In this document: piece by piece, positions 1-52,471 of the stretch
Numbering within the stretch: the stretch's first letter is position 1
How the letters are laid out: every line of letters begins with the position of its first letter
Translations under genes and position numbers: made by a program
NCBI GenBank assembly: GCA_050250895.1
Contig: JBFWNU010000001.1
Coordinates: forward strand, 2,980,891-3,044,890
Direction of reading: 5' to 3'
Length of the DNA: 64,000 bases
DNA from: Vulcanimicrobiota bacterium
GTDB taxonomy: Bacteria > Vulcanimicrobiota > Xenobia > Xenobiales > JADMJV01
Notes under the pieces: generated by a model
Seen by the model: the letters and a program-made list of their open reading frames with translations, nothing else
Databases searched by the model: none
Told to the model about the DNA's origin: nothing

Positions 1-1227
1 TGCTAGGAGGTCTAGCGTTTTCTCTATCCGGTTTCGGCCGACATTTGCGACTTTAAGCAGTTCGGGAACACTCAGCCCTTCAGGGCTTCGAGTAAGTGCG
101 TTGACTACTTCCTCAGCTTCCTCGCTAGTTGGAAACGCAGACTCAATGAAGAAGTTGGTGATTTCGGTGTCTTCTTCGCCGCTGAGAAGCACACCGTAAG
201 CCGATTTAAGTGCCCGACCAGCGCGGCCGACTTGCTGATAGTAGGCAACGACAGATCCCGGTGCTTGATAGTGGACGACAAAGGCGAGATCGGGCTTGTC
301 AAATCCCATCCCGAGCGCCATGGTTGCGACCAGAGCCTTCACATCGTTTCCCATGAGCCTATTCTCGAGGTCAACCCGCGCGCTGCCCGATTTCCCCGTA
401 TAAGCCTCAACAGGCAAACCCTGGCATTTCAGCCAGTCGGTCACCTGATGGGCGTCCCGGATTGTGAGAGTATAGATGATCCCGCTGCCGTCAATGTTAG
501 GCAAGTGCTCAGCCAACCACGCGAGCCGCTCGGCTTGACCGGGCAAGATGATGGTTTGAAGGTGCAGGGACGGCCTGCCTAGGGGACCTCGGATCACCTC
601 GAGTTGCGGCCCTAGAACGCTTCGCAAATCTTCCATCACTCGCGAATTCGCGGTAGCGGTAGTGGCTAACAAACGTAAGTTCTTGGGGAGATTCCCTATG
701 ATCCTCTGGAGCAAGCGGTAATGTGGTCGAAAGTCGTGGCCCCAGTCTGAAACGCAGTGGGCTTCGTCAACGATCAAGAGCGATATGCGGGGCGCTAAAG
801 ATGCAAGGACTCTTTCGCGAAAGCGCTCGCTTGACAGGCGTTCCGGCGAAATGAGGAGAATGTCGACAGAGTCGTTCGCGACGGCCGTCTCGACAGGGTC
901 CCAGTCGCATTGATTTTCACTGTTGATGGTCTCAGCAAGGAGACCCATCCGGCGAGCCGCCTCGATTTGATTTCGCATCAATGCCAGCAATGGAGAGATG
1001 AGGATGGCCGGCCCGCACCCTGCTTCCCTGAGTAGTTTGGTGCCGATGAAATAGACAGAACTCTTGCCCCAGCCGGTTCTTTGAACGACCAACAATCGCC
1101 CCTTCCCCTCGACAGTATGGCGAATCGCGTCCTCTTGGCCGTGCCGGAACCAAGTGCCCGGCTGCTGTGTCGCCAAGCGAAGAAGTTCCGCAGCTCGCGC
1201 CGGATCGTAACGTATCTTGAACGACAT
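1..1227 (-). CDS. recQ: RecQ-family ATP-dependent DNA helicase (3' end runs off the window)
   Basis: Not in the ORF track because no stop lies inside the window. Manual translation from ATG 1227 (GGAGG RBS upstream) gives QRTGWGKS, ISPLLALMRNQ, ISPERL, VDEAHCVSDWGHDFRP, TTATA, VATMALGMGFDKPD and YYQQVGRAGR. Confidence 0.93.
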   Translation of the reverse strand, partial: MSFKIRYDPARAAELLRLATQQPGTWFRHGQEDAIRHTVEGKGRLLVVQRTGWGKSSVYFIGTKLLREAGCGPAILISPLLALMRNQIEAARRMGLLAETINSENQCDWDPVETAVANDSVDILLISPERLSSERFRERVLASLAPRISLLIVDEAHCVSDWGHDFRPHYRLLQRIIGNLPKNLRLLATTATANSRVMEDLRSVLGPQLEVIRGPLGRPSLHLQTIILPGQAERLAWLAEHLPNIDGSGIIYTLTIRDAHQVTDWLKCQGLPVEAYTGKSGSARVDLENRLMGNDVKALVATMALGMGFDKPDLAFVVHYQAPGSVVAYYQQVGRAGRALKSAYGVLLSGEEDTEITNFFIESAFPTSEEAEEVVNALTRSPEGLSVPELLKVANVGRNRIEKTLDLLA

Positions 1228-1447
1228 AGTTAGCCTCCACAGTCAACGCCTCCGACTCATACAACGCCAGTTCCCGCTGGGCTTGCCTCGTGGGCGGTCA
1301 GCGCCGGTCGTTGTCCCAGTTCCATCGGACGACGTGACATCTCGCAGCGAAGGGTTACGAGCCCCAGCGGAACGAATCTTTAACACAAGCGCCGACCGAA
1401 CCTCTTTGACGTGGAGGCCGCGACTCCCTGGACGGTCGAACGCCAGC

Positions 1448-1690
1448 CTATGGGTCTGAGGAGTGGCGCTCACCCTCCAGGTCGTTTCGAAGTCTGAGGA
1501 TAGTTCCGTGAGCCAAGTCTAACATGACTAATGCACAGCCACGGCAATACCCCTTCTCGACCCGCCCCTCTTTGACCAGCAGGACCAGGTCGCCCTTCAA
1601 GATTTGATGCGCTTTACTGTGATAGCACTTTCTTCTTCTACGGGCAGTCTGGATGGCTAGGGTCTTCAAAACGGCTTTGTGTCTAGCCAC
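1448..1690 (-). CDS. small basic Cys/His (putative Zn-binding) protein
   Basis: 80 aa with KCYHSKAH...YCRGC; its GTG start overlaps the helicase stop codon. Confidence 0.75.
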   Translation of the reverse strand: MARHKAVLKTLAIQTARRRRKCYHSKAHQILKGDLVLLVKEGRVEKGYCRGCALVMLDLAHGTILRLRNDLEGERHSSDP

Positions 1691-3881
1691 TGCCGTCCCT
1701 CAATTCGTACACAACCTGGTCAAGAATCTCGTCCATTCCGTCGTGCGCTTTCCTCAGCTCTTCTAGATCGAGGGAGTCGCGGTCATTCGCGTCGATGTCT
1801 AAAAAACGATTGACTGCGAGGTTCAAGAGCACAATCGCTGCAGCCAGATTGTCGCTGGCAGGCGTCCTCACTTTGCTGACGAGCTCTCTTCCCGGGACCT
1901 GGAGCCCGAGCCGATTCAGGAGTTCCTTCGCTGCCGAGCGAGTTCTTTCGTTGAGGCGTCGGCGGGCTTGCTGCCGCGCCCTCTGGGGTTGAACAGGCTG
2001 CGGGATGAACGGCACTACGCTTGCGGAGTCATTTGGTTCTGAGGCTCCCAACTGTCTCTCCAGGTCAGCTTGTGCGATCCCCAACTCCTCTGGGTCAAAA
2101 CCTTTTAGGCGGATTGTTCGAAAAAGGTCGTCTATCACTCGCTGTCGCTCCTCGACGCTGAGCGGTCGCCCGAGGTAGTGGTCCTGCACAAGAGAATCAA
2201 TAGTTTCGCTTACGACTTCGATGTCCGGCCGAAATCTGCGAACCTTTTTCGATGTACTTGAGGAGAATACTCGGGACCCGTTCGCGACTTCTTGGAGGAG
2301 ACTCCGGTCATCTTGGTCAAAGGATCTAAGCTCTTCCCACCAGCGATCGACATTCAACCCCAGGTGAGAAATAACGTAAGCTCGGTTATCCGGATGGCCA
2401 GGCTGCGCCTCTTTGATAACGCGCATCACTCGGCCTATAAACTGAATGTATGGAACAATGTGGCGGAAGGGGCGAAAAATCGCCGCGACACTTAGGTTGG
2501 GGTAGTCGGCACCTTCATTGAGGATAGAAACCTGGCAGATGACATCTAATTGGAGATTCTTGAGCGCTGCTCGGGTTCGACCCTGCTCTTCTTCCGTTTG
2601 CTTGCTGTGTAGGACTGCGGCCCGAAGGCCCCTTTCTTCGTAAAGAGAACGGATGGATTTCGCGTGGTCTATAGAGCAGGCGGCCGCTATGATTTGATGG
2701 TGAGCGGTTCCATCACTTCGCAATTCCCGCAAGCTCTGAATAGAAGCGTCAACGATGTGTTCGTTGCACTCACGGGAAAGAGCCACTCCTCGACTGAACC
2801 ACGTCGTCTCCTTCAACCTGACGACTTCGTCTATGCTGTACACTTTGCCCGGTTCATTGCTGGTGAACCGAAGTTCGGTTGGCGCGAGCCTTCGGCTGGC
2901 GATGTCTTTGATATAGCCCTCGCGGATCGCACTGGCAATTGGATAGCGATAGATGAGCTCTCCGTCGACGGGTTGCCCATCACTCCTGAGCGGAGTCGCC
3001 GTGAAACTTACAACCTTTGCCTTGGGAAAACGTGAAAGCGTCTCCTTCCAGGACGGCGCAGGGGCATGGTGCGCCTCATCCACAAGGATCAAATCAAAGT
3101 AGCGGGGGCCGAACCGATCCAGCCACTTTGCCCTCGTCGTCGCTAATTGCTGTATGTTTGCCAAAAGGATGTTGGCGCTATCACAATCGTGAATGTTTGC
3201 GTTCGGTTCGAGTACCGCCGTGGTCGGATGGCTCCCGTTCGCAAAGACGGCAGTCTTCTTCCAAAAGTTTTGCGTGTTTGATGCATCCATGGATTTCTGG
3301 ACCGTGCGCAGGATCTCAAGGTTGGGCACGATAACGAGAACCCTGCCCGACGAGATTTCGAACGGCATTAAAGCCATCGTTCCCGTCTTTCCGCATCCCA
3401 CGGGCAGTTGGATGATCGCAGGGCGCGCCCTCTCCCGAGAGAAATAGGATCGAGCGGCGTGATATGCAGCTTTTTGCGGCTTCCGTAGCTCATCGTTTCC
3501 GTCGATATTCACCCGGCTTGTTAGAAAGAGCTTATGTTTGTATTCTCGACCCAGTTCTGCAAGCATGGCTGCTATCCAGGCGTTGGCCGCTTCGGATTCC
3601 GAACATTCGAGGGCGAACTCGAGGACGCATCGTGCCTCAATTTTTCTGTCGGCGTCTATCAGGCAACTCGCTTGGCTGATTAGGTTGACAGAAGCGCGCT
3701 CGCCCCGACCATCAAGGAGAAGCAACTCTGCGATTTGTCCCTCTTTGGTGGCTACGTGGCTAGCCAGCCACCTGATGGCTCTCCGCGACCCGGCAGGATT
3801 GACCTTCATCGCCTCCAACTCGAGTAGGGACTGTGATTTCTCAGTCTTGAGTCGACGCAGTTCCAAGTCTTGCGGTCTCAT
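1683..3881 (-). CDS. SF2 DEAH helicase (ResIII/Helicase_C type) with ~110-aa N-terminal helical domain
   Basis: LPVGCGKT, DEAHH, TATP, NEGADYP and QFIGRVMR motifs. ATG 3881 overlaps the upstream stop (ATGA). Confidence 0.88.
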   Translation of the reverse strand: MRPQDLELRRLKTEKSQSLLELEAMKVNPAGSRRAIRWLASHVATKEGQIAELLLLDGRGERASVNLISQASCLIDADRKIEARCVLEFALECSESEAANAWIAAMLAELGREYKHKLFLTSRVNIDGNDELRKPQKAAYHAARSYFSRERARPAIIQLPVGCGKTGTMALMPFEISSGRVLVIVPNLEILRTVQKSMDASNTQNFWKKTAVFANGSHPTTAVLEPNANIHDCDSANILLANIQQLATTRAKWLDRFGPRYFDLILVDEAHHAPAPSWKETLSRFPKAKVVSFTATPLRSDGQPVDGELIYRYPIASAIREGYIKDIASRRLAPTELRFTSNEPGKVYSIDEVVRLKETTWFSRGVALSRECNEHIVDASIQSLRELRSDGTAHHQIIAAACSIDHAKSIRSLYEERGLRAAVLHSKQTEEEQGRTRAALKNLQLDVICQVSILNEGADYPNLSVAAIFRPFRHIVPYIQFIGRVMRVIKEAQPGHPDNRAYVISHLGLNVDRWWEELRSFDQDDRSLLQEVANGSRVFSSSTSKKVRRFRPDIEVVSETIDSLVQDHYLGRPLSVEERQRVIDDLFRTIRLKGFDPEELGIAQADLERQLGASEPNDSASVVPFIPQPVQPQRARQQARRRLNERTRSAAKELLNRLGLQVPGRELVSKVRTPASDNLAAAIVLLNLAVNRFLDIDANDRDSLDLEELRKAHDGMDEILDQVVYELRDGSG

Positions 3882-11046: not shown

Positions 11047-11624
11047 GAGACCCTCGACCCGGATGTTGCCCTGAGACTAAAGCAAGAGATGGAGCGAGAA
11101 ACAAGACCCTGAAGGCGACCGTGAACGATGCTCTTCGAAGAGGATTGAACCTCGCGTGCCACCAGGACGAGGACGAGCCTTTCCAGGTTGAGGCCCATGA
11201 CTTTGGCTTCAAGCGGGAATCGACCTGGACCGCCTCAACCAGTTGGTCGACCAGCTCGAAGCCGAAGAAGTCGCCTCGAGACATCCGTTTTGATCACCCC
11301 GACGTCAATCTGCTGATTCATGCCTACAACGCCGCTTCGCCTCGTCACCAGCGAGCGAAACAGTGGTGGGAGGAGCTGATGGACGACCCGAAGGCGATCG
11401 TCGGGCTCACCTGGGTCGCCATGATGGGCTTCATTCGCGTCGTTACCCATCCGAGACACGCGCAGATCTTCTTCGGGCTGCTGGAATCTCTTGGCAGCGC
11501 AGGCAACCTCACGACCGACGCGCATCTTGCCGCGGTCGCGATCGAATTTCAAGCCGAACTCCACACCACAGATGCTGATATGTCGCGCTTTTCAGGTTTG
11601 AGTTGGCGCAATCCCATAGGCTAA
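11047..11624 (+). pseudogene. decayed vapBC toxin-antitoxin pair
   Basis: Antitoxin remnants (TLDPDVA..VNDALRRGL..NQLVDQLE) with frameshifts. PIN toxin (PDVNLL...GNLTTDAHLAA..TTDADMSRF) has a damaged start and an apparent internal deletion at THPR/HAQ. Confidence 0.75.
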
Positions 11625-11687
11625 CATCCCAGCCGGCTCCCCGCCCCGAAACGACTCCGTGTCGTTGTCCACCCCGACGAGACCAAG

Positions 11688-11818
11688 CCGTCAACTGGCG
11701 GCTGGTCGAGCGGCGACGCGCGCGTCGCGAGAAACATCGCGGTCGTAGGTCCCCTCGGCTGTGCCAGCCCAGGCTCAGCAGCGCTCCCGGGCCGCCCGGC
11801 CTGTCAAATGTCGTGGAG
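11688..11818 (-). pseudogene. degenerate fragment of the AhpD-like gene
   Basis: Aligns by eye to 10665-10827 (ccgtcaactgg, gtcgagcggcga, cggtcgtagg, cagcagcgctcccgg, atgtcgtggag). Confidence 0.75.
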
Positions 11819-11825
11819 TTAAGCG

Positions 11826-11868
11826 TTGACCATGACTCGGTTAAGGTATATATTTTGGATAGATATTC
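11826..11868 (+). promoter_or_regulatory. sigma70-type promoter/operator of vapBC
   Basis: TTGACC-N17-TATATT followed by AT-rich GTATATA/GATAGATA boxes, upstream of vapB. Confidence 0.65.
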
Positions 11869-11887
11869 GTGGGCGAAGGATGGTGTT

Positions 11888-12121
11888 ATGCAGAAAGCCA
11901 AACTGTTTAAGAATGGACAAAGTCAGGCTGTCCGTCTACCGAAGGAATTTCGGTTCTCCGGTAGCGAGGTCCATATAAAGAGGGTCGGAAACGCGGTTGT
12001 TCTGATGCCGATGGAGGGTTTCTGGGAGCCGATGCTATCGGCTCTCGACATGTTCAGCGACGACTTCATGGAGTCCCGCTCACAACCCGGTGAGCAGGTT
12101 CGGGAGGAACTCTTCGATTGA
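11888..12121 (+). CDS. vapB: VapB antitoxin (AbrB/MazE/SpoVT fold)
   Basis: MQKAKLFKNGQSQAVRLPKEFRF signature. Confidence 0.93.
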   Translation: MQKAKLFKNGQSQAVRLPKEFRFSGSEVHIKRVGNAVVLMPMEGFWEPMLSALDMFSDDFMESRSQPGEQVREELFD

Positions 12122-12519
12122 CGCACCTCTTGGACACCGACATTTGCGTCTATCTGATTAAGCGAAGGCCTCCCGCGGTCATCGAGAGACTTCGCTCACA
12201 CCCGCCCGGAGAGATCGGTGTCTCGTCCGTGACCGTTGCCGAGTTGTCATACGGAGTTGAGAAAAGTCAGCATCGCGAGGGCAATAAGGCGGCCCTGCGA
12301 CAGTTTCTGTTGCCCCTGGTCGTGTTGGATTTTAACCACGAAGCCGCCCTGACCTATGGCGAGGTGAGGGCAACTCTGGAGCGTGCCGGCACGCCCATCG
12401 GGCCGTTCGACACGATGATTGGGGCCCACGCCTTACACCTGAACGCGACCCTGGTCACCAATAACCTCTGGGAGTTTTCTCGCATCATCGGTTTGAGAAC
12501 GGAAAACTGGTCGGCCTAA
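12118..12519 (+). CDS. vapC: VapC PIN-domain toxin
   Basis: LLDTDIC, ELSYG, IGPFDTMIGAHA and LVTNN..EF; overlaps vapB. Confidence 0.93.
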   Translation: MTHLLDTDICVYLIKRRPPAVIERLRSHPPGEIGVSSVTVAELSYGVEKSQHREGNKAALRQFLLPLVVLDFNHEAALTYGEVRATLERAGTPIGPFDTMIGAHALHLNATLVTNNLWEFSRIIGLRTENWSA

Positions 12520-16561: not shown

Positions 16562-17626
16562 GTGAAAAAGGCTTTCCCTAAAGACAGTCTGCAGCTCCTC
16601 ATCGACAAGTTGCGCCAGGACGGCTACGAAGTGGTCGGTCCGCGGGTGCGTGACGGGGCTATCGTCTATGATACCGTCACGTCGCTCGAGCAGTTGCCCC
16701 GAGGCGTCGTCGACGAGCAGCAGCCGGGCAGCTATCGGCTGCTCCAACAGGGAGACCGCTATTTCGCCCACACGGTGGGTCCCCACTCCTGGAAAAAATA
16801 CCTGCATCCGCCCGGCCTGTGCATGTTCAAAAGCCGCCCCGACGGCACCATTACCGAGGGCGATCCGGTGGTGCGCCGGGCCTTTCTGGGGGTGAGGGCC
16901 TGCGAGTTGGCGGCTATGGCCGTCCAAGACAAGGTTTTTCTGGGTCAAGGCTATCAAGACCCGTGGTATGACGAGCGCCGCCGGGCCAGCCTGGTCATCG
17001 GCGTCAACTGCAGCCGGGCCGGTAACACCTGTTTTTGCGTGTCGATGAAGACCGGGCCCACCGTCACCCAGGGGGATGACCTGACGCTGACCGAACTCGA
17101 CGAGGTTTTTCTGGCCGAAGCTCGCACGCCCGCTGGCCAGGCCCTGCTCGAGGCTCTTCCTACCCGGGCCGCAACCCCGGCCGAAGAGCAGGCGGCCAGG
17201 GCTCAGACCGAGGCTATCCAGATGGGGCGAAAGCTCGACACCGAGGGCCTGCCGGAGCGACTCAAGGCCAACCTCGATCACCCTCGCTGGGACGAGGTGG
17301 CCGACCGCTGCTTGACCTGCACCAACTGCACCATGGTCTGCCCCACCTGTTTCTGCTTCTCGGTCGATGAGGTGACCGACCTGACCGGCGACGAGAGCAG
17401 CCGGGTGCGCCATTGGGACTCGTGCTTTACCACCAATTTCACCTACACCGCTGGCAGCTGCGAGCGGGTCAGCAACAAGTCGCGCTATCGCCAATGGCTG
17501 ACCCACAAGCTGGCCACCTGGCACGACCAGTTCGGCGAGTCGGGTTGCGTGGGCTGCGGACGCTGCATCACCTGGTGTCCGGTGGGAATCGATATCACCG
17601 AGGAGGCCAACGCCATCCGTGATTGA
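16562..17626 (+). CDS. hydB: group 3b hydrogenase/sulfhydrogenase beta subunit (4Fe-4S dicluster)
   Basis: [16 protein letters not shown] and [17 protein letters not shown]. Confidence 0.9.
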
Positions 17627-18065
17627 TCATCCATTTACCAGGAGCTTTACCGAGGCCGAACACAAGCAGTTCGAAGCCATCTGCAAGCGGGTCGAGTTCT
17701 TGCCCGGAACCTACCTCTTGCGCGAAGACCAACCATGCGATCGCTTTTATCTACTCGAGCGCGGTCTGGTCTCGATCGAGTTGCAGCGACCTGGCCGTGA
17801 GGTGCTGCGGTTGCAAACCGAGACGGGCGGCAGCGAAGTCGGTTGGTCGTGGTTGTTTGCGCCCTACCGGGCCACCTTTGATGTGAGGACGGTCGAGCTT
17901 TGCGAGGCCTACGCGGTCGAGGCCGCCGCCATGCGCAAACTAATGGAGGACGAGCCCGCCTTCGGTTTCAAGGCCATGCAGGCGCTGCTGCACACCATGG
18001 TCGAGCGGCTGATGCAGGCGCGATTGCAGTTGCTCGACATCCACTCGGTGGGGGAGACACCATGA
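17619..18065 (+). CDS. cyclic nucleotide-binding domain protein
   Basis: [16 protein letters not shown]...GWSW cNMP fold with no HTH; coupled within the operon. Confidence 0.85.
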
Positions 18066-18871
18066 TCCCACGCACGTTCGAAGTCACCAGTCGGGTCCAG
18101 GACAATCCCGTCACTTACACCCTCGGGGCCCGGGCCGTCGAAGGCCCGCCCCTGGAGTTTTGCCCGGGGCAGTTCAACATGCTCTATGTCCACGGCAAAG
18201 GCGAGATTCCCATCTCGATTTCGGGTCCGGCCTACCAACCCGAGCAGTTGCTTCACACGGTCCAGGTGGTGGGGGCGGTCAGCCGGGCCTTCACCGAGCT
18301 CGAGCCGGGCCAGCGGTTCGGCGTGCGCGGGCCTTTCGGACGCGGCTGGCCGGTCGAGGCGGCCCGGGGTCATGACGTGTGCCTGATGGCGGGCGGGTTG
18401 GGGCTGGCTCCGCTGCGTCCGGTCATCTATGCGATCGCGGCCCAGCGCGAGCATTACGGGCGGGTGGTGGTGCTCTATGGCGCTCGCCAGACGGATCTGC
18501 TGCTCTTCCAGGCAGAGTTCGGCCAGTGGCCCGACATCGAGGTGATGGTCACCGTCGACATGGCCTCGCCGGGCTGGCACGGCCATATCGGCGTGGTCAC
18601 GGGCCTGTGCCGAGCCGCGTCGCGGCGATTGGATCTCTCCAGGGCCTACGCCATGGTGTGCGGACCGCCGGTGATGATGCGCTTTTCGGTGCGCGAACTG
18701 CTGCGCTGGGGAGCCGCCCCCGAGCGGGTTTTTCTCTCGGTCGAACGCAATATGCAGTGCGGCCTGGGAGTGTGCGGGCACTGTCAGTACGGCCCCTATT
18801 TCCTGTGTAAGGACGGTCCGGTGTTTTCTTACCAGGAGCTGCAGCCCTGGATGGAGGTGCGCGAGCTATGA
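18062..18871 (+). CDS. hydG: group 3b hydrogenase gamma subunit (FAD/NAD(P)-binding, 2Fe-2S)
   Basis: [31 protein letters not shown] and [11 protein letters not shown]...CKDGPVF. Confidence 0.9.
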
Positions 18872-19644
18872 AGCCAAGACTCGCCGTGTGGAAGTTCTCG
18901 TCATGTGACGGATGCCAGCTGTCGGTGCTCGACTGCGAAGACGAGTTGCTGGCCCTGGCCGGCCAGGTCGAGATTGCCTATTTTCTCGAGGCCACCAGCG
19001 CCAGCGCCCCCGGTCCCTACGACGTGTCGTTGGTCGAGGGCAGCATCTCGACTCCTCACGAAGAGGAGCTGATTCGCCAGGTGCGTTCGCAATCGAGCTT
19101 TCTGGCCACCATCGGAGCCTGCGCTACGGCCGGTGGCATCCAGGCTCTGCGCAACTTCGCCGAGGTGGACGAATTCATCAAGACCGTCTACGCCCACCCG
19201 GAGTACATCGAGACTCTGAGCGAATGCCATCCCATCTCGGACTATGTCAAGGTCGATTTCGAGCTGCGCGGCTGCCCCATCAACAAGCAGCAGTTGTTGG
19301 AACTGCTCAACGCCCTGCTGCACGGACGGCGTCCCAACATCCCGCCCCACAGCCTGTGTCATGAATGCAAGCGACGGGGGTTAGTGTGCGTCTCGGTAGC
19401 CCACGGAACTCCCTGTCTGGGCCCCGTGACCCAGGCCGGTTGCGGAGCGCTCTGCCCGGGTTGTAACCGGGGCTGCTACGGCTGCTTCGGACCGATGGAG
19501 ACTCCCAACACCGAGGCGCTGGCGCAGCGCTTGCGCCTGCAGGGCGTGAGCGACGGCGAGATGGTGCGGCTGTTCCGTAGCTTCAACGCCAACGCTCCCG
19601 AATTCAAGGAGGCAAGTCTTCGCCATGAATACCCGCATCATTAA
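18868..19644 (+). CDS. hydD: group 3b hydrogenase delta (small) subunit
   Basis: SCDGC, GACA, GCP and [22 protein letters not shown]. Confidence 0.9.
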
Positions 19645-20911
19645 AGTCGACGCCCTGGCCCGGGTCGAAGGAGAGGGCGCCCTTCACGTCCGCCTGCGGG
19701 GCGACGAGATCGAGGAAGTCCGCTTTCGTATCTTCGAGCCGCCCAGGTTCTTCGAGGCCTTTCTGCGAGGTCGCGGCTATTTGGAAGTGCCCGATATCAC
19801 GGCCCGTATCTGCGGTATCTGCCCGGTGGCCTATCAGATGAGTTCGGTGCATGCCCTCGAGCAGGCTCTCGGTCTGGAAATGGGCGACGCCTATGTCGAC
19901 TTGCGCCGGCTGCTCTATTGTGGCGAGTGGATCGAAAGTCACGCCTTACACGTGCTGATGCTCCACGCTCCTGACTTTTTCAAGAAGGCCAGCGTGCTCG
20001 AACTGGCCGAGCTGTTTCCCGAAGTGGTAGCCCGGGGGTTGGCCCTCAAGAAGGCGGGCAATGCCCTGGTGGCCGCCGTGGGCGGGCGCGAGGTCCATCC
20101 CGTCAACGTGCGCGTGGGCGGCTTCTATCGCTCGCCCGACACCCTTCATACCCTCGTCCCACAGCTCGAGAAGGCCCGCGAGATCGCGGCCGAGCTGGTG
20201 GAGTGGGTGAGCGGGTTCGACTTTCCCGAGCTCGAGGTCGACTATGAATATGTCTCGCTCTTTCACCCCGACGAGTACCCCATGAATCGAGGCCGGATGG
20301 TCTCGAACAAGGGCCTCGACATCGCCGTGGAAGACTTCTTCGAGCACTTCCAGGAAGAGCACATCGAGCATTCCAACGCTCTCCACTGTCGCCGCCTGCC
20401 GGGGCTGACGAGCTATCAGGTGGGCCCCCTGGCTCGGGTCAATCTGGCTTTCGAGCAGCTCTCGCCCGCGGCCCGCGAACTGGCCCGTCAGCACGGTTTC
20501 GAGCCGCCCTGTCTCAATCCGTTCAAGAGCATCATCGCCCGGGCGGTCGAGACCTTTTATGCGGTCGATGAGGCCCTGCGCCTGATCACTTCTTACCAGC
20601 CACCCGCTCAGCCTTACCTCACCGCCCCCAACCGGGCCGGCGTGGGCCACGCCTGCACCGAGGCTCCCCGCGGGACCCTCTACCATCGCTACGAGGTCGA
20701 CGCCGAGGGACTGATCGTGAAGGCCGACATCGTGCCTCCCACTTCGCAGAACCAGGCCCAGATCGAAGACGACCTGCGACGACTCTTGCCCAGCTTGCTC
20801 GAACGCTCCGAAGACGAGATCCAGCATCGCTGCGAGCAGGCCATTCGCAACTATGACCCCTGCATCTCTTGTGCCACCCACTTTCTGAGGGTCGAACTCG
20901 AGCGGCTGTGA
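19625..20911 (+). CDS. hydA: group 3b [NiFe]-hydrogenase alpha (large) subunit
   Basis: RVEGEG; L1 motif [10 protein letters not shown]; L2 motif DPCISCATH followed by a cleavable C-terminal tail. Confidence 0.93.
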
Positions 20912-21357
20912 TCGTCGGCATGGGAAATCCCTATCGCCGGGATGATGGGGTGGGGCCGACCATGCTCGAGCGCCTCGCGGACCTTCCCACCTATTTCTGC
21001 CAGGGCGACCCCCTCGGTTTGATGACCGTCCTCGATGACCACGGCACGGTGATCATCATCGACGCTGTGCTCGGGCCAGAGCCTGGGCGAGTGCATCGAT
21101 GGGAGTGGGGCCAGACGCCGCCGGAACTGCTGGCCAGTCGCTTGTCCAGCCACAGTTTGCCGCTGCTTAGCACCCTGCGGCTGATGGAACGACAGAATCG
21201 TCTGCCCGAGCATACTGTCGTCTACGCTGTCGAGGCCGAGGACTTCTCGATGGGAGTGGGCCTCTCGCCCGCGGTCGAGGCCGTGCTGCCTGAACTAGAG
21301 CGTTGTATTCGCCAGGAATTGACACGGTTTCTTCCCAAGTCTAGGGAGCATGAGTGA
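20908..21357 (+). CDS. hydrogenase maturation protease
   Basis: GMGNPYRRDDGVG, IIDA and SSH; GTGA overlap with hydA. Confidence 0.88.
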   Translation: MIVGMGNPYRRDDGVGPTMLERLADLPTYFCQGDPLGLMTVLDDHGTVIIIDAVLGPEPGRVHRWEWGQTPPELLASRLSSHSLPLLSTLRLMERQNRLPEHTVVYAVEAEDFSMGVGLSPAVEAVLPELERCIRQELTRFLPKSREHE

Positions 21358-22618
21358 GCTAGAGGCATACCTCGCACGTCTGTCGGCCGGAGATAGCCTC
21401 GAGCCCGGCCGGTTTACCATCGACCTCGAGAGGGCCCGCCGACAGCTGCGCGAGCACCGCTCGGCCGAACCTGCCTTCTATCTGCTCAAGGTGTTCCAGG
21501 CCCTGGTAGCGGGCGGCGCCCTGCGCATCGACCTCCACCTCAACTTCGCCGGAGTGAGGATGGCGGCCGAGGTCGACGCAGGCAGCCTGCTTACCGATCA
21601 GGCCGAGTTGATGCGGGCCATCAGCGAGCCAGATCCTCACGGGGCGCTGCGCCACCTGGCCATCGGACTCGACGCCTGTGCCAGCCAGAGCGTGGGCTGG
21701 GGGGTATGGACCGACAGGTGGGGGTGGAGCCTTAGCCTGCGCGAAGACCAGCTCGAGACCCAGCAATTAACGGCCCAGCCGAGCTGGGCTAAAGAGGGAC
21801 ACTGGGTCGAATTTCGTCTGCAGCGGCGCAGCCTGGGTTCTCTGGCAGGATTGCTGAGCGAACGCAAGGCGGTCAGCGACCGCTGCCAGTATTGCCCGGT
21901 TCCGGTTCGCCTTGATGATGTCGAGCTACCATCGGGCTGGAGAGTTCCTGAGGGCGACGAGGACTTTCCTGGGTTTCACCTGGCCGAGCGCTACCTCTGC
22001 GAGCCTCGGGGACCGGTGGGCATGACGGTTCGCGAAGACCTCGCTCTGGTCACCCAGCGCGAAGCCATCCAGCCCCGCGAGGCTGCTACCACCTACCAGA
22101 TTCAGTTGGTCGGCGCCCAGCGAGGCGGGCGGTTGCGCTGCCGCATGGCGCTGGCCCTGCCTCACCCCCAGAAGGGTTCCGACCGGCTGACCGCCGTCAA
22201 GGCCGGAGTGACCACCATGCCTCACACCATCGCCGCCGAGGGTCGTGGCCTGGAGGTGGTGGTCGAGGGTGACCACCTCACCACCGACCTGTCCGAGTTC
22301 GGGCTAGTCGAGGACGAGGCCCTGGCCGAGACGGTGGCCGAGGCGGCCCGCCAGGCAGTGGCTATGATCGACGAGCTACAAGACGCTCTCGGTCAGCTGC
22401 CCCGGCATTACCACAGCGACGCGCCTGTCTTTATCACCCTCAACCTGAGCCTGGGCGTGCTTTTTCCTCTGCTCATCCCGGTGGGCCTTGGTGAGTGGAT
22501 CTATTCTCGCCGCCGCCAGGCCCGAATCGAGCGCGAGACGCCAGACTACCGGCTCCGGGTCGGCTCCGAACTCGAGCGCACGCGCGAGCACCTGAAGAAA
22601 CTGGTTGCGCCTGGGTAG
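21350..22618 (+). CDS. hypothetical protein, GxFT(L/I)D family (GHKL-like N-terminus), with C-terminal TM
   Basis: GRFTIDLERARRQL...YLLKVFQA, HLAIGL and LTTDLSEF are shared with two nearby paralogs. Confidence 0.7.
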   Translation: MSELEAYLARLSAGDSLEPGRFTIDLERARRQLREHRSAEPAFYLLKVFQALVAGGALRIDLHLNFAGVRMAAEVDAGSLLTDQAELMRAISEPDPHGALRHLAIGLDACASQSVGWGVWTDRWGWSLSLREDQLETQQLTAQPSWAKEGHWVEFRLQRRSLGSLAGLLSERKAVSDRCQYCPVPVRLDDVELPSGWRVPEGDEDFPGFHLAERYLCEPRGPVGMTVREDLALVTQREAIQPREAATTYQIQLVGAQRGGRLRCRMALALPHPQKGSDRLTAVKAGVTTMPHTIAAEGRGLEVVVEGDHLTTDLSEFGLVEDEALAETVAEAARQAVAMIDELQDALGQLPRHYHSDAPVFITLNLSLGVLFPLLIPVGLGEWIYSRRRQARIERETPDYRLRVGSELERTREHLKKLVAPG

Positions 22619-22642
22619 GACAAGAAAGAAGCCCAAGCAAGA

Positions 22643-22677
22643 GACTCCGGTGACAGGGGTTAGCTGTCGGGAGTCCT
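22643..22677 (-). terminator. hairpin downstream of RiPP precursor
   Basis: GACTCC..GACAG/CTGTC..GGAGTC stem followed on the minus strand by a T-rich tract; lies between convergent genes. Confidence 0.5.
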
Positions 22678-22705
22678 CACTTGAGCACCGAGGAGTCTAG
22701 TGGAT

Positions 22706-23428
22706 TCAGGCTCGAAGGAAGGGCGAAATGTCGTGGTCCGAGTCGGAAGGGTAGGCCTGGGTCACCGCAATCGGCGGGGGACCAATGGGAGGCTTGAAGC
22801 CACCGTCGTGGTCGGAGTCGGACGGGTAGGCCATGGTGGCGATGGGCGGGCCGCCGGGGCGAGGGCCGTTGTCGGTATCCGAGTCGGACGGGTAGGCCAT
22901 GGTGGCGATGGGCGGGCCGCCGGGGCGGGGTCCGTTGTCGTGGTCCGAGTCGGAAGGATAGGCCTGAGTGGTGGCGATGGGCGGGCCGCCGGGGCGGGGT
23001 CCGTTGTCGTGGTCGGAGTCGGAAGGATAGGCCTGAGTGGTGGCGATGGGCGGGCCGCCGGGGCGGGGTCCGTTGTCATGGTCCGAGTCGGAAGGATAGG
23101 CCTGAGTGGTGGCGATGGGCGGGCCGCCGGGGCGCGGACCGTTGTCGTGGTCGGAGTCGGAAGGATAGGCCTGGGTCACTGCGATGGGGGGGCGACCGAC
23201 CTTGTGCTGGTCTTCCAGAAAGCGGTTGAAGAACGGCGAGGGTGCGGGGGCGGGTTGGCCGCCGGCGAAGTCGCCCCAGCGACGACCCATCAGCTGGCTC
23301 GAGGCCAGCAGTTGCAGCAAGTCGGGCAGTCCGAAGGAGGGGGCGGCCGGAGCGCTAGCCGGCTGGGAGGGGAAAGGGTTGAAGGAAGGGACGTAGTTCT
23401 GGGCGGGTTGAAATCTCTGAATTTCCAC
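22706..23428 (-). CDS. multi-core microviridin/marinostatin-type (graspetide) RiPP precursor
   Basis: Leader motif PFFNRFL (cf. PFFARFL) then seven T(Q/M)AYPSDSD cores. Probable GTG start at 23428 after a GGAGAG RBS. Confidence 0.88.
   Translation of the reverse strand: MEIQRFQPAQNYVPSFNPFPSQPASAPAAPSFGLPDLLQLLASSQLMGRRWGDFAGGQPAPAPSPFFNRFLEDQHKVGRPPIAVTQAYPSDSDHDNGPRPGGPPIATTQAYPSDSDHDNGPRPGGPPIATTQAYPSDSDHDNGPRPGGPPIATTQAYPSDSDHDNGPRPGGPPIATMAYPSDSDTDNGPRPGGPPIATMAYPSDSDHDGGFKPPIGPPPIAVTQAYPSDSDHDISPFLRA
22730..23192 (-). repeat. coding tandem repeat, 66-72 bp units x7
   Basis: Repeated GTCGTGGTC(C/G)GAGTCGGA(A/C)GG units encoding the RiPP cores. Confidence 0.9.
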
Positions 23429-23555
23429 GGTTGTGCTCTCTCCTGCGGCTGGTTTTGTTGGGATCATCTTAGCGGGTGAGCTTCCACCGTTCTTCCAAAC
23501 GGGGACCCACATGTTACAAGAATGTGAAACTGTGGATCGCGCCGAACTCGATGGC

Positions 23556-24152: not shown

Positions 24153-24705
24153 ATGGCTATTGTTGTTGCTGTTGTTGGTTCAGCCGGCGCTGGCCGACGT
24201 GCGTTTCAAGGCCAAAGGGGCGAGCTTTACGCTGGTGGCCGGCAAAGAGGCCAGCAAGTTCAAGCTCGTCGACGGCAAAGGCAAGACGGTGGCTACCTAC
24301 AAGCTCAAGAAAGACCTGGTGCTGGTCTCGGACGGACAGCACCAAGAGGTCTACAAGCTCAAGCGCAAGCCCGACGGTTTCGATGTGCGCGGACCCGACA
24401 GTAAAGCCAAGCGTCTCTATCTGTTTCGGCGCAAAGACAAGACCGACTGGAACATCGCTGATGGGCGCGAAGTGCGAGTGATGACCGTGAGATTGCGCAA
24501 AGGCGCCTACGAACTCGATGACAAGACGGTGAGCAAAGTTCGCCTGGTGGGCGACAAGCTGGCCTTCTTCGACAAAGCCGGCAAAAGCGCTGGCGAGTTG
24601 AGCGGCACCAAGGACCTCGAGGCCGGCACCTGGATGGGGGTCGGGCAGTTCGACCCCGCTTTGCGCGGCGCGCTGTTCCTCTATCTCTCCAAGGTTGACA
24701 ACTAG
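24145..24705 (+). CDS. secreted Lys-rich hypothetical protein
   Basis: Signal peptide ending ALA-D; overlaps the upstream gene. Confidence 0.75.
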   Translation: MIRWLLLLLLLVQPALADVRFKAKGASFTLVAGKEASKFKLVDGKGKTVATYKLKKDLVLVSDGQHQEVYKLKRKPDGFDVRGPDSKAKRLYLFRRKDKTDWNIADGREVRVMTVRLRKGAYELDDKTVSKVRLVGDKLAFFDKAGKSAGELSGTKDLEAGTWMGVGQFDPALRGALFLYLSKVDN

Positions 24706-25856
24706 AACCTGCGGAGGGGCAGGCGCTCGAGGTGGCGGTGAGGACCGCTATCGGTGACGTAGAATGCCCGCCAGCGCACTGTCTCGAAATCGCTGACCAT
24801 TTCCAGGACTTGCTCCTTGAGCCACTCCATCCGCTCCTGAAAGGCCCTGTTCCTGACCAGGCCATAGCCTGAGGCGTCGGTGGTCAGGCCGTCGCTGGCG
24901 CAGACCCCGGTGACGCCCGGGCATCCCAGATCGAGACGAGCCACCTCGATCAGCAGGCCCCGTTTGACGAAGGCGATGGTGGCCTCGCCCAACAGGTCGT
25001 AGCGAATGGCCAGCATGGCTCGACAGAACTGGCCTTCTCCAGTCTTGCGCAGGAGCACGGTGTTGGCCCCATCGCGCAAGGTCAGATGGATTTCCGTGCG
25101 CTTTGGACAAAAGTCGGTCTCGGTCACCAGGTGCATGGGCCGGCGCGCCCTGGGGTCGGGCGCCTGAATGGCGGCGGTTGCGTCCAGGTCGGAGCTATAG
25201 ATGAAGCGCTCGACCAGATGGAAGTCGGCGCTAGGGTAGCTGGAGGCTGGACCGCGAGGGGCCCCCAGTGTCGGGACCTCGAGTCGCTTGCCATCCAGCC
25301 AGATGGGAATGGCTACATAGGCGAATCCCGTGGTGAGCATCCGATGTTCAGCGGCCCGCTCCCCAGCCCCGAAAAGCCGCTGCCACAACGCGGCCGGGCG
25401 CTGGCGCACCAGTCGAATGTAGAAGGCTTCACTCTTGTTCACCTGGCTCAGGGTGTTGGTCTGGCCCAACCGCAGTAGTTGGTTATGACCCAGGATCTCG
25501 ATGCCCTCGATCTGGGCGGCGAAGGCTGACGCCAGGCCGGTGGCCAGATCGCGCCAGCATCCCGAGGCGGCCAGAGGATTGGCCAGGGCGGGCTGGAGAG
25601 TGGCCAGAAAGTCGGGCGCGATGGGATGGGCTTCTACTAGCAGGTCGTGGCGGCCCAGTCGAACGTTGATGGCGGCCGTATGGAGCCCGACCAACCCCTG
25701 CAGGATCTTCTGCAGGTAATAGCCGGGTCGTTCGAGCTGGTAGTTGGCCAGTTTCTCGCGTGCTCGGATAAAGTCGAGAGTGAACGCGCCGGAGGAGTCG
25801 AGCTGTCCTTCCTCGCGCTTTGCTTTGAGCAAAGCCTCGAACTCGCGCCGACTCAT
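24702..25856 (-). CDS. hypothetical protein, GxFT(L/I)D family paralog
   Basis: SSGAFTLDFIRAREKLANYQL..YYLQKILQG, DLATGL and LTTDASGY. Confidence 0.75.
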   Translation of the reverse strand: MSRREFEALLKAKREEGQLDSSGAFTLDFIRAREKLANYQLERPGYYLQKILQGLVGLHTAAINVRLGRHDLLVEAHPIAPDFLATLQPALANPLAASGCWRDLATGLASAFAAQIEGIEILGHNQLLRLGQTNTLSQVNKSEAFYIRLVRQRPAALWQRLFGAGERAAEHRMLTTGFAYVAIPIWLDGKRLEVPTLGAPRGPASSYPSADFHLVERFIYSSDLDATAAIQAPDPRARRPMHLVTETDFCPKRTEIHLTLRDGANTVLLRKTGEGQFCRAMLAIRYDLLGEATIAFVKRGLLIEVARLDLGCPGVTGVCASDGLTTDASGYGLVRNRAFQERMEWLKEQVLEMVSDFETVRWRAFYVTDSGPHRHLERLPLRRF

Positions 25857-25923
25857 GGGCTGCCTTTTCGCGTCAGGGCATTCCGGGCCCTTCGCAGGGG
25901 CGGTTGGCCGCGGCGCGAAGGCG

Positions 25924-27591
25924 ATGGTCTTGGCGGACTCACTAGCTCAATTCCTGGACCAGGCGCGCGCCTCTGGCAAGCTCGAGTCGACCGGCAGGTT
26001 CAGCCTCAACGTTGACCGGGCCAACCACCTGTTGCGGGACCTCCAACTGGCCGACCGCAGCTACTATCTGCTCAAGCTGGCTCAAGCGGGCGTGGTGGGC
26101 GAGGCCAGCTGGATTTCCTATCGTTTGAGCTACGATCGAGTGGAGATTTTTCTGCGCGGCGGAGACCTCGAGCTGTTTGATACCTCCGAGGTGCTGGCGG
26201 CCCTGACCCAACAGGAGGTCCTGCTGGGCGATTCGGCCCTGTCTCATCTGGCCGTTGGACTCAACGCCGCTCTGGCCACTCGACCCAACGCCGTGGAGTG
26301 GACCGTCTGGAACGCCTGGCGCCAGGAACGACTGCGCCTGGATGGGCAGGGAACGTCGCTCGAACGACTGCGCGAGGCGCCCTGGCAGGGAGGGCAGTCG
26401 GGCTACAGCCTGGTTCTGCATCGAAACCCACCGCCGCCTCCGCCTCCGCCCGAGGAGCCGACCTTTTGGGAGCGTCTCAAAGGCTGGGTCGAAGGCAAGG
26501 CGGTGCAAGCCGCCTCGGTCAGCGAAGAGCATCGGACCCTCTCGACCCGGCTGGCGTACTGCCCGATTCGGGTCGAGGTCGACGGGCGGGTGGTCAACGC
26601 CCCCGATCTGGGGGGCAACCGGACCAATCCCAGGAACCTTCATGAGTATGAAGTCTTTCTCCATTGTGGCGGACCCAATGTCCTGGCCTTTGCGCCCACG
26701 ACAGGCCGGGCCGAGGCGACCCGCTCCAGCGACCGCTTCGAGCGGGTCGGGACCACCTGGCGCAAATCGCTAGACAACGAGTGGCTGCGCGGTTGCCTGA
26801 TGGCGGCCGTTCCTTCTCGGGGCGGCGGCCTGGCCCAGGTCACCTTCGTTCACTTCGGGGTTAGCCTTGACCCGGTGACCGTCGACCTGCGTGCTCCGGG
26901 GGCGTTGGTGGTCTCGTCCACGGCCGGTCTTTCCACCGATCTTAGCCAGCGCTCGATCGCTCAGAATCAAGCCTTCGACCAGTGGACGGACGAGGTCGGC
27001 GAGTGGCTGTGGGGCACGCCTTCGACCGCCTTCCTGGTGCATCACACCGAGCCGGCGCCGCCCTACGCCAGCCTGGGTGACTTGCCGAAGGGCGACGAAT
27101 GGAGCCTGACCTTCGATAGCGACGGAGCGCCCAAGACCCTGCTCCATCCCAGCGGAACCTCGCTTTCCTTTTCGCCGGCTCGATTGCAGGTGCCGCCGGG
27201 CCGCTGGCCTTTGGCGCCTCCCCAGAGCCTCACTCCCCGTCGTTGGCGCGAGTGGCTGGCCGGTGCCCTGCGCTGCCTGGCCGATGGGGGCCGGGTGCGC
27301 ATTACTCATCACTTTCTCAAGGGGCCTTACGTCGAGGAGGGCGACGGAGTCCTGGCTCGGTTCGAGAACGATCATCTGGTCTATCTGGCGGTCCATCGCG
27401 ACGGCCGGCCGGCGGGCTGGATCCTCGAGCTTCGCGAACCCCACCAGGGACAGGTCAGCCACGTAACCTCCACGTGGGATGAACGTTATTCCAATGGCGA
27501 AGTCATCCAGGGCGAGACCCACCTGCCGAAGATCTGGTCCGAGTGGGTCGAGGCCTGGATCGAGGCAGTCTACCGCGACACCCAGCTTTAG
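25924..27591 (+). CDS. hypothetical protein, GxFT(L/I)D family paralog with C-terminal extension
   Basis: STGRFSLNVDRA..LQL..YYLLKLAQA, HLAVGL and LSTDLSQR. Confidence 0.75.
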   Translation: MVLADSLAQFLDQARASGKLESTGRFSLNVDRANHLLRDLQLADRSYYLLKLAQAGVVGEASWISYRLSYDRVEIFLRGGDLELFDTSEVLAALTQQEVLLGDSALSHLAVGLNAALATRPNAVEWTVWNAWRQERLRLDGQGTSLERLREAPWQGGQSGYSLVLHRNPPPPPPPPEEPTFWERLKGWVEGKAVQAASVSEEHRTLSTRLAYCPIRVEVDGRVVNAPDLGGNRTNPRNLHEYEVFLHCGGPNVLAFAPTTGRAEATRSSDRFERVGTTWRKSLDNEWLRGCLMAAVPSRGGGLAQVTFVHFGVSLDPVTVDLRAPGALVVSSTAGLSTDLSQRSIAQNQAFDQWTDEVGEWLWGTPSTAFLVHHTEPAPPYASLGDLPKGDEWSLTFDSDGAPKTLLHPSGTSLSFSPARLQVPPGRWPLAPPQSLTPRRWREWLAGALRCLADGGRVRITHHFLKGPYVEEGDGVLARFENDHLVYLAVHRDGRPAGWILELREPHQGQVSHVTSTWDERYSNGEVIQGETHLPKIWSEWVEAWIEAVYRDTQL

Positions 27592-44060: not shown

Positions 44061-45107
44061 CTACCAGGCGTACTGATAACGAGCCCGCAAGCCCCGGCTC
44101 GCAGCGGGCGCCCCCTCGTCGGCCTGGCGAAATTCGTAGTTGAGCTGAAAGCGATGCACCGGCTTGCGCGAGAGATAGTAGTTCACGCCGAGCACGACCC
44201 GGCTGCGGGCGTTGGTGGCGTCGCGAGCCCGCTGAAGGTCGACCCGGTCCAGGTCGGGGTCGAACTGATCAAAGCTGACCACCGCGTCAACCTCTTCCGA
44301 GGCCCGATAGACGCCGGTCAGGTAATAGCCTCGCCAGCGGCTGTCGGCGCGCGAGAAGAGGTTGTAGCCATCTCCCAGGATCAGCTCGCCTTCGAGCTTC
44401 CAGGGGCCCTCCTCGAAGTGGGCCTCGAGGCCGTATCGCTGCACCGGCTGAGTGATGTCGCTACCCTCGGGCACGATGGTGCCCAGGTGCCCCGAGGCGC
44501 CCACTCGCAGGCTGGGGCTGAGCGAATAGACCAGGCGCGCGGCCAGGTCCTTGCCTCCATTGCGGTCGGCAACGTTCTGGCCCTGGCCTCCCACGACGGC
44601 CACCCCATACTCCCAGCGCTCGGTCTGTCCAAACCCGCCGAGGCCGATGTCTCGCTGGAAGAGAACTCGGCTAACATCGCTGCGCTCGATGGTGTCCAAC
44701 GCCCGCGAGCTACGAAAGAACTCCCATCCGAAGGGCACCTTGAACTGGCCGATGCGCAAATGATGCTGGTCGTCGAAGCGGTGCCGCACATAGAGATCGA
44801 GCATGGTCAACTGAGTCTCGTCGAAGTCGAGTTGATCAGCCTCGAAGTCGGTCTCGTTCACCAGGGCCCAGTTGGGAGCCAGATGGACGGTCGGGATCAG
44901 TCTCAGGCGACGTACCCTGAGGACATCACGAGCCGGAAACCCGCTCAATCCGTTGCGAGCGGGGCGGGCCCCGGCCCTCAGAGCGCCCAGTTCGCCATCC
45001 TCGAATTGTAGCTGCACCTGTCCCTCCACCACGATGTCGGGGTAACGATCCTCGTCGGCTTCGGCCAGCACCGCCAGGCTCAACAGCAGAAACAATATCA
45101 GGAACAT
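44061..45107 (-). CDS. outer-membrane porin (OprO/OprP-like)
   Basis: RVRRLRL, RIGQFKVPFG, IERS and RDIG; C-terminal YQYAW. Confidence 0.82.
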   Translation of the reverse strand: MFLILFLLLSLAVLAEADEDRYPDIVVEGQVQLQFEDGELGALRAGARPARNGLSGFPARDVLRVRRLRLIPTVHLAPNWALVNETDFEADQLDFDETQLTMLDLYVRHRFDDQHHLRIGQFKVPFGWEFFRSSRALDTIERSDVSRVLFQRDIGLGGFGQTERWEYGVAVVGGQGQNVADRNGGKDLAARLVYSLSPSLRVGASGHLGTIVPEGSDITQPVQRYGLEAHFEEGPWKLEGELILGDGYNLFSRADSRWRGYYLTGVYRASEEVDAVVSFDQFDPDLDRVDLQRARDATNARSRVVLGVNYYLSRKPVHRFQLNYEFRQADEGAPAASRGLRARYQYAW

Positions 45108-45180
45108 TCCTCTGTTTTCGTTTGCCTGGCTTGCATCCCTGTGGAGGGAACCGGCGCATTTGGCGGGAACCACGCCGGCC

Positions 45181-52231: not shown

Positions 52232-52471
52232 GTGAGATGGGACTTACCCCAGAGTCAAAAACCCCCCGAAACCGTCAGCCAGAGATTGGCCGTGGCCCTT
52301 TCGCTCTTTGAGGACGGAGTGGCCATGATGCGGGCCAATCTGCGCCGGCAGCATCCCGACTACACCGAGGCAGAGGTCGAGCAGGCTCTCGAAGCCTGGC
52401 TGCTTACCCGACCAGGCGCCGAACACGGCGACGGAGTAGGAGTCAAGCGCGAGTTTGACCCCTCTAGCTGA
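52232..52471 (+). CDS. small putative antitoxin partner of nucleotidyltransferase
   Basis: LFEDGVAMMRANLRRQHP..EAEVEQALEAW; overlaps the downstream gene; start uncertain. Confidence 0.65.
   Translation: MRWDLPQSQKPPETVSQRLAVALSLFEDGVAMMRANLRRQHPDYTEAEVEQALEAWLLTRPGAEHGDGVGVKREFDPSS

Follow-up and report, generated by a model that had tools for sequence, protein, structure and literature searches.

A seven-core, lactam-free marinostatin-type graspetide precursor from Vulcanimicrobiota, probably esterified in trans by a distant MvdD-like ligase

The precursor gene and its seven cores

The stretch of DNA analysed here (the window; 64,000 nucleotides of contig JBFWNU010000001.1 from a Vulcanimicrobiota bacterium) carries on its minus strand a gene for a graspetide-type precursor of 240 amino acids, in which a single leader is followed by seven nine-residue cores (Table 1). 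The minus-strand translation bears out the leader sequence PFFNRFLEDQ and the seven cores, five TQAYPSDSD and two TMAYPSDSD, that had been read in an initial annotation of this DNA. The cores start at residues 85, 108, 131, 154, 176, 198 and 223 and are separated by linkers that are mostly HDNGPRPGGPPIA, with HDGGFKPPIGPPPIA as the sixth; GG stands before cores 2–6 and the final linker is PPIGPPPIA. When comparing the possible starts, the GTG at 23428 fitted better than the in-frame upstream starts, which extend to 23557, and in the alignment the homologues begin with M-x-I-(Q/H/T) at the column that corresponds to it. The promoter scan revealed no sigma-70-like site directly 5' of the gene, the single site lying about 440 nt upstream, and the terminator-like match behind the stop codon is a weak one (three such sites were observed in the region against 1.2 expected). 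The third-position GC of the frame, 0.76, is like that of the neighbouring genes, and the 259-amino-acid antisense open reading frame (ORF) spanning the same repeat is a shadow of it.

Most of the core array coincides with a 69-nt tandem repeat, found by Tandem Repeats Finder in 5.4 copies with 93% matches and no indels, a copy number that depends on the assembly. Pairwise comparison of the seven nine-codon cores gave 52 synonymous and 10 non-synonymous differences, all ten at the Q/M position, and it is therefore the peptide that is conserved and not merely a DNA repeat. The four ester-forming residues are retained in 7/7 cores, and the position of the lactam-forming Lys is taken by Ala in 7/7; the earlier statement that no lactam is possible thus holds, Lys being absent from every core. 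In an alignment of ten homologues the leader residues W51, P65, F66, F67, L71, E72 and Q74 were invariant, as were the T, Y, P, S and D positions in two aligned core units. The role of the PFF-type motif in microviridin and marinostatin leaders is treated in sections of PMC7823629 and PMC13039773. A second conserved element, L-x-x-x-W-x-x-(F/L)-x-G, is found N-terminal to the PFF motif at residues 36–57 of the leader and includes Trp51, invariant in all ten homologues.

The protein scored 34.8 bits with PF12559 (Inhibitor_I10, Pfam; curated cut-off 21) and 70.4 bits with NF033738 (the NCBIfam microviridin/marinostatin family; curated cut-off 26) and, being above both, is a member of a described family. 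Together with these scores, the motif PFFNRFL at residues 65–71 and the core pattern T-x-x-Y-P-S-D-x-[DE] place it among the microviridin/marinostatin precursors, and with the ester residues intact in every core the initial reading as a multi-core marinostatin-like graspetide precursor is supported. It falls outside the tricyclic microviridins, with Ala instead of Lys and no MvdC/MdnB-type ligase in the genome, and it agrees with the marinostatin subtype in that the genome contains a single MvdD/MdnC-type ester ligase. The ligase-adjacent layout of that subtype is missing, which concerns the layout of the cluster and not the peptide family. With the class II multi-core precursors it shares several cores behind one leader, but not the combination of GG sites and a C39-peptidase ATP-binding cassette (ABC) transporter.

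None of the 56 ORFs of the window showed an ATP-grasp domain in a Pfam search, and the hidden Markov model (HMM) and tblastn matches of the genome lie only on contigs 13 and 2, in line with the initial annotation, which had found no such ligase in the 64 kb. Its further statement that no transporter is present stood only in part; the window does contain an AI-2E family transporter and a porin, about 21 kb from the precursor and neither evidently linked to it.

Ligases and further precursors in the same genome

The genome (17 contigs, 9.5 Mb) has a marker-gene completeness of 99.64%. The annotation had proposed a genome-wide search for a graspetide ligase, whose absence would have spoken against it, and such a search using HMMs revealed one strong MvdD-like ligase gene, situated on contig 13. 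Any maturation of the window precursor would hence take place in trans, as had been suggested, the cognate ligase not being nearby. The enzyme scored 393 bits with TIGR04184 and 249.5 bits with the MvdC model TIGR04185, and it contains the MvdD pre-ATP-grasp leader-binding domain PF21068 (103.7 bits, cut-off 27). Among solved structures its best relative is 5ig9_A (293.9 bits), followed by CdnC, 7mgv (244.7) and 5ig8 (212.5). We take 5ig9 to be the ester ligase MdnC, solved together with its leader, and 5ig8 to be the lactam ligase MdnB.

A regular-expression scan combined with tblastn identified exactly three precursor ORFs and two ATP-grasp maturase-like loci, on contigs 13 and 2, in the whole genome, while neither an MvdC/MdnB-type lactam ligase nor a second paralogue beside the contig-13 ligase was found. 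The precursor beside this ligase has five cores, three TMAYPSDSD and two TLRYPSDSD, and the leader motif PFFERFLEDQH, compared with PFFNRFLEDQH in the window precursor; the TMAYPSDSD core is common to both. The third precursor, a second orphan about 177 kb from the window gene, contains four TLRYPSDSD cores and the motif PFFNNFLEGQ. Lys was found at the lactam position in 0/16 cores of the three precursors and this, together with the lack of an MvdC-type ligase, indicates bicyclic products of marinostatin type; a section of PMC7823629 likewise ties the absence of MdnB to the marinostatin type without an amide bond. Both ends of the 3.95-Mb contig are more than 0.9 Mb away from the window, and the ligase must therefore be far away or on another replicon.

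Between the contig-13 ligase and its five-core precursor there is a 223-amino-acid protein without family match, which has one paralogue with 32% identity on contig 1 and is absent from the 65 related loci described below. The 467-, 374- and 388-amino-acid proteins of unknown function near the ligase gave tblastn matches in 0/65 of these loci. A conserved partner, protease or exporter beside the ligase was considered and dropped, no neighbour being conserved across the 65 loci. On contig 2 a second candidate graspetide cluster was noticed. Its ATP-grasp enzyme scored 149.6 bits with TIGR04187 and 106.9 bits with the MvdD model and is adjoined by a degenerate ATP-grasp-like ORF; 5' of it is a K/E-rich ORF of 319 amino acids with repeats of roughly 31 amino acids, no PFF leader and no YPSD core.

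Related loci and maturation in trans

A search of 5.8 billion proteins returned only 11 homologues of the window protein at E ≤ 0.001, several with the same cores. Scanning one genome per species gave 65 related loci, the nearest in metagenome-assembled genomes of Candidatus Eremiobacteraeota, Candidatus Xenobia, Vulcanimicrobiota and UBP9 and the more distant in Myxococcota (Archangium, Sorangium), cyanobacteria, Acidobacteriota and Bacteroidota. A ligase was present in the fetched flank of 56 of the 65 loci (two ligases in 36, one in 20), and among the nine loci without a ligase match at least three have almost no downstream flank. Lys-type cores occurred in 36/36 two-ligase loci, while in 11/11 genome loci with only Arg or Ala at the lactam position and a downstream ligase (L026–L031, L033, L034, L037, L039 and L040) there was exactly one ligase match, directly downstream, whose product is 49–64% identical to the contig-13 enzyme. 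Ala at the lactam position was also found in records from Myxococcota (TMAYPSDAE) and Taibaiella/Bacteroidota (TMAYPSDSD).

In a quick IQ-TREE phylogeny of the ligases (94 rows, LG+G4) the contig-13 enzyme fell within the MvdD-like clade of 53 rows, with an SH-like approximate likelihood ratio test (SH-aLRT) value of 100, together with all 36 of the more MvdD-like ligases from the two-ligase loci. Its sister is the L029 ligase (SH-aLRT 99), and the precursor directly 5' of the latter contains the cores TQAYPADSD, TQAYPSDSD and TMAYPSDSD. The subclade around the contig-13 enzyme consists of 15 rows, of which single-ligase loci contribute 13, and its support is only 90.

A scan of metagenomes added 14 loci, several of them near-duplicates, in which a ligase 53–64% identical to the contig-13 enzyme was found in 11, a relative with only 23% identity in one, and no ligase in two, both with truncated flanks. 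The window protein has its closest metagenomic homologues in L092 and L093 (57% identity), whose five cores are two TQAYPSDSD, two TMAYPSDSD and one TMAFPSDSD and which stop 40 nt short of a ligase sharing 61% identity with the contig-13 enzyme. More generally, in the fetched relatives with the same TQA/TMA cores the precursor is situated 40–46 nt 5' of a single ligase, 61–65% identical to that enzyme. The initial annotation had suggested a new family, but the curated microviridin/marinostatin thresholds are passed and identical TQAYPSDSD and TMAYPSDSD cores adjoin MvdD-type ligases in related genomes and metagenomes, and the suggestion was given up; as judged from its sequence, the precursor is a member of the known microviridin/marinostatin family. 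In the lineage, nine of 61 genomes gave a precursor match and 18 an MvdD-like ligase (E ≤ 1e-40), both being present in eight of the nine and the ninth genome being 65% complete, figures that are descriptive only as kin are not independent.

Because relatives pair the same cores with ligases that are 61–65% identical to the contig-13 enzyme and include its sister, trans maturation by this enzyme is the best reading, and we put the probability at about three in four that the window gene codes for a multi-core (class II-like) precursor of a group-1 graspetide of marinostatin subtype, esterified in trans by the MvdD/MdnC-type ligase of contig 13. The ligase would bind the PFF helix of the leader (PFFNRFLEDQ) and close, core by core, two omega-ester rings in each, Thr1-Asp7 and Ser6-Asp9, as in the pattern of marinostatin. 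It would probably act distributively, as AMdnC does on three to four cores guided by one leader (described in a part of PMC5934393). No lactam would be formed, given that no core has Lys and the genome lacks an MvdC/MdnB-type ligase. The products would presumably be bicyclic inhibitors of serine proteases in which P1 is Gln or Met and P1' is Ala, and one ligase would serve three precursors with 16 cores of three P1/P1' types (including TMA and TLR). Sections of PMC10125368 describe the bicyclic marinostatin E (ATMRYPSDSDEDGFN) as an inhibitor of chymotrypsin and subtilisin. A Gln-specific target protease for the window cores is speculation; Gln at the P1 position is common in cyanobacterial multi-core precursors.

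A predicted complex of the contig-13 ligase with precursor residues 36–100 (leader and first core) scored 0.59, the best of three controls reaching 0.01. Among 80 solved complexes 58 reach the mark applied, and among 110 mismatched pairs two do so; of those that pass, 7 of the 80 and both mismatches lie at or below 0.60. The runs agreed in at least 49% of contacts, with a predicted local distance difference test (pLDDT) value for the partner of at least 52. The prediction lends weak support to binding, and the pass may reflect mere likeness to a solved complex of the 5ig9 type.

Several observations weigh against maturation by the contig-13 ligase. A ligase-adjacent precursor is usual among the close relatives with enough flank and the orphan position in the window is the exception, so that the gene could be a copy on its way to decay. 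The ligase lies on another contig than the window gene; its 393 bits are below the TIGR04184 equivalog cut-off of 475, which makes it MvdD-like and not a strict equivalog. The window and contig-13 precursors are 54% identical overall, with leaders that diverge outside the PFF motif, and the ring topology would be carried over from marinostatin by identity of motifs only. Furthermore, the neighbours of the ligase (the 223-amino-acid protein and an EamA transporter) gave no tblastn match in 65/65 related loci, and neither a protease for the leader or linkers nor an acetyltransferase nor a dedicated exporter came to light.

The more serious of the alternatives, although improbable, is that of an orphan gone silent or decaying, duplicated or moved from a ligase cluster, unexpressed or unmodified and without function. 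It would fit with the separation from any ligase, with the ligase-adjacent position of all the closest homologues that have enough flank, and with a genome of the same genus (G001, 98% complete) that gave no NF033738 match. A search for sequencing runs listed no RNA run, only two DNA runs with a 0.05 share of the sequence words each. Against this, the 240-codon frame is intact with its Shine-Dalgarno-like site and terminator-like hairpin, the recognition motif of the leader is preserved, 7/7 cores retain the full set of cross-linking residues, and the core differences are 52 synonymous against 10 non-synonymous, the latter all Q/M. The second orphan precursor of the genome, with four cores, is intact as well, and precursor matches on contigs without a ligase match in three related genomes (G016, G020 and G022) suggest that dispersal is normal in this lineage, a point weakened by contig fragmentation.

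It is very unlikely that the precursor is instead modified by the contig-2 ATP-grasp pair or by an unrecognised enzyme. An enzyme of the type acting on peptides that are made by the ribosome and modified after translation (RiPPs), with a degenerate ATP-grasp-like neighbour, does exist there, but it shares only 26% identity with the contig-13 ligase, appears as a distant outgroup in the ligase tree and is located directly 3' of a candidate substrate of its own, the K/E-rich repeat ORF, and every related locus with the cores in question pairs them with an MvdD-like ligase. We give hardly any credence to the idea that no RiPP precursor is involved and that the ORF codes for some common repeat protein rich in Pro, Gly and Asp or arises spuriously from a DNA repeat. 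The low-complexity linkers and the antisense ORF over the same repeat could be taken that way; two independent curated family models above threshold, leader and core motifs conserved across phyla beside ligases, the third-position GC shared with the neighbours and the synonymous pattern among the cores all oppose it.

Linkers of class II precursors can contain double-glycine motifs (parts of PMC7823629 and PMC13039773), and the initial annotation had considered cutting at the GG linkers. A C39-ABC transporter is absent from the genome, in which the single PF03412 (C39) match is a stand-alone, unfused protein of 226 amino acids, and cleavage at these linkers is therefore unsupported; in the five-core paralogue on contig 13 two of the five cores have no GG directly before them. 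A tentative idea, which we hold to be clearly less probable than not, is that one ester ligase serves as a hub for dispersed, fast-expanding multi-core precursors and that the seven-core product perhaps stays uncut as a polyvalent "beads-on-a-string" inhibitor that gains in potency with the number of copies, which is reported for plesiocin in a part of PMC13097080. As neither a C39 transporter nor a linker protease was found and the 69-nt duplications are recent, selection on copy number and not on released monomers would fit.

Among the related loci some other arrangements were observed. In three loci of the same order (L014, L020 and L021) a single leader precedes 19, 17 and at least 15 Lys cores (TxK[YF]PSDxE), respectively, and the last two are situated directly 5' of an MvdC-like and MvdD-like ligase pair. 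Four loci from Myxococcota (L030, L031, L035 and L038) have 12–16 cores each. The small multi-core precursors P0011, P0012 and L018 have the cores TEAYPSDSD, TKAYPSDSD and TQAYPSDSD and an N-terminus resembling a twin-arginine signal (RRRFLTD...) immediately before the PFF motif; the contig of L018 has no ligase match. In P0007–P0009, L010, L015 and L022, likewise on contigs without a ligase match, Ala-type (TQAYPSDNE, TMAYPSDNE) and Lys-type (TAKYPSDNE, TEKYPSDNE, TMKFPSDQE) cores occur in one polypeptide, and going by these core sequences bicyclic and tricyclic units may come from a single precursor.

In the window itself the precursor is surrounded by three paralogous genes without Pfam or NCBIfam match, belonging to a family with dozens of copies genome-wide that is weakly akin to the 467-amino-acid ORF near the contig-13 ligase. 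Given this number of copies their adjacency was treated as chance and they were rejected as partners of the precursor. Protein-atlas clusters of the family are mostly from Vulcanimicrobiota and hint weakly at a fold like GHKL/HATPase_c_3 (MutL/Hsp90-type). An operon of [NiFe]-hydrogenase type has its end just upstream of this neighbourhood, and toxin-antitoxin-like genes are found at two places.

Table 1. Positions of the precursor gene, its parts and other features in the window, the genome and related loci
Feature	Position	Strand	Basis or remark
Precursor coding sequence (240 aa) with stop codon	22706..23428	(-)	GTG start at 23428; profile scores, homologue alignment
Shine-Dalgarno-like AGGAGAGAG	23436..23444	(-)	7 nt 5' of GTG; read from sequence, putative function
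Sigma-70-like site	23897-23869	(-)	promoter scan
Leader region, residues 1-80, with Trp51 motif and ligase-recognition motif	23189..23428	(-)	ten-homologue alignment
Second conserved leader element	about 23258-23323	(-)	
PFFNRFLEDQ, residues 65-74, counterpart of the microviridin PFFARFL ligase-binding motif	23207..23236	(-)	
Seven-core array with Pro/Gly-rich linkers, residues 81-240	22709..23188	(-)	core positions, codons, tandem repeat
69-nt tandem repeat	22805-23173		Tandem Repeats Finder
Terminator-like hairpin and T-run	22628..22648	(-)	about 58 nt 3' of stop; consensus scan
Antisense ORF	22700..23479	(+)	259 aa
Flanking paralogues	21350-22618	(+)	
	24702-25856	(-)	
	25744-27591	(+)	
[NiFe]-hydrogenase-type operon	16562-21357	(+)	4Fe-4S protein, NAD-binding/FeS subunit, small subunit (Oxidored_q6), large subunit (NiFeSe_Hases), HycI maturation protease
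Toxin-antitoxin-like genes (PIN and MazE-PIN ORFs, AbiEii nucleotidyltransferase toxin)	11121-12519	(+)	
	52455-53036	(+)	
Porin	44061-45182		
AI-2E family transporter	45160-46338		
MvdD-like ligase	C13:33072-34028		whole-genome HMM search
223-aa protein beside ligase	L006 11050..11721 (G000:C13)	(-)	
Paralogue of 223-aa protein	C1:3404224		
Third precursor	C1:2826513-2827157		
Contig-2 ATP-grasp	C2:878733-879623		
Second candidate graspetide cluster	L008 8716..11463 (G000:C2, about 878.7-881.5 kb)		
L014	G022:C143, frame 76..1656		
L020	G016:C114, frame 322..1752		
L021	G020:C57		
L018	G006:C181, frame 1824..1405		

Significance and comparison with known systems

The precursor is a clear example of a lactam-free marinostatin-type graspetide precursor in a poorly studied phylum, and is of interest chiefly for its trans arrangement, the number of its cores and the host lineage. 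Class II microviridin precursors are given "up to five" cores in portions of the reviews PMC7823629 and PMC13039773, a number exceeded here, and fetched relatives with 12–19 cores per precursor go beyond the seven of the window gene. In the literature text searched, the strings AYPSDSD, AYPSDNE and RYPSDNE were not found and RYPSDSD only for marinostatin E, and among the 15 best of 219 literature matches none linked Eremiobacterota/Xenobia with microviridins or graspetides. Graspetide mining with RODEO has given more than 20,000 predicted members (part of PMC13097080), and published survey sets may already list such precursors. For genome mining the consequence is that cluster-centred tools would miss two of the three precursors of this genome and, of the 16 cores, 11. 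For enzymology the system is a natural case in which to test how many cores can be guided per leader and whether Ala at P1' with P1 being Gln or Met alters protease specificity. The window precursor neither reveals a new mechanism nor settles a long-standing question.

One of the closest known systems is marinostatin, in which the esters are Thr3-Asp9 and Ser8-Asp11 and whose precursor has a single core. Marinostatin and marinostatin E of Algicola sagamiensis share with the window system the T-x-x-Y-P-S-D-S-D spacing, the lack of Lys and lactam, the PFF-type leader and the logic of a single ligase (sections of PMC10125368, PMC7823629 and PMC13039773). Unlike marinostatin, the window precursor has seven cores, Ala for Arg at P1', Gln or Met at P1 and its ligase on another contig. 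The class II system AMdnA/AMdnC of Anabaena sp. PCC 7120 is alike in having one leader, tandem cores and a distributive ester ligase of MdnC type (a part of PMC5934393), whereas class II features are tricyclic cores with Lys, two ligases and usually a transporter with C39 peptidase, against seven Lys-free cores, one ligase in trans and no C39-ABC transporter here. Chryseoviridin (CdnA3/CdnC) of Chryseobacterium gregarium is likewise multi-core and made by a single ATP-grasp ligase, CdnC (7mgv) being the second-best solved relative of the contig-13 ligase, and according to a section of PMC10125368 it inhibits serine proteases even without a lactam. It differs in combining one microviridin-like bicyclic core with additional single-ring esters, where the window precursor has seven equivalent cores of marinostatin type. 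In the prochlorosins several scattered precursor genes with a common leader are served by a single maturase, ProcM. The dispersal of the precursors is comparable to that proposed here, but the chemistry is lanthionine there and would be omega-ester here, and in the present genome the precursors are only three genes, each with multiple cores.

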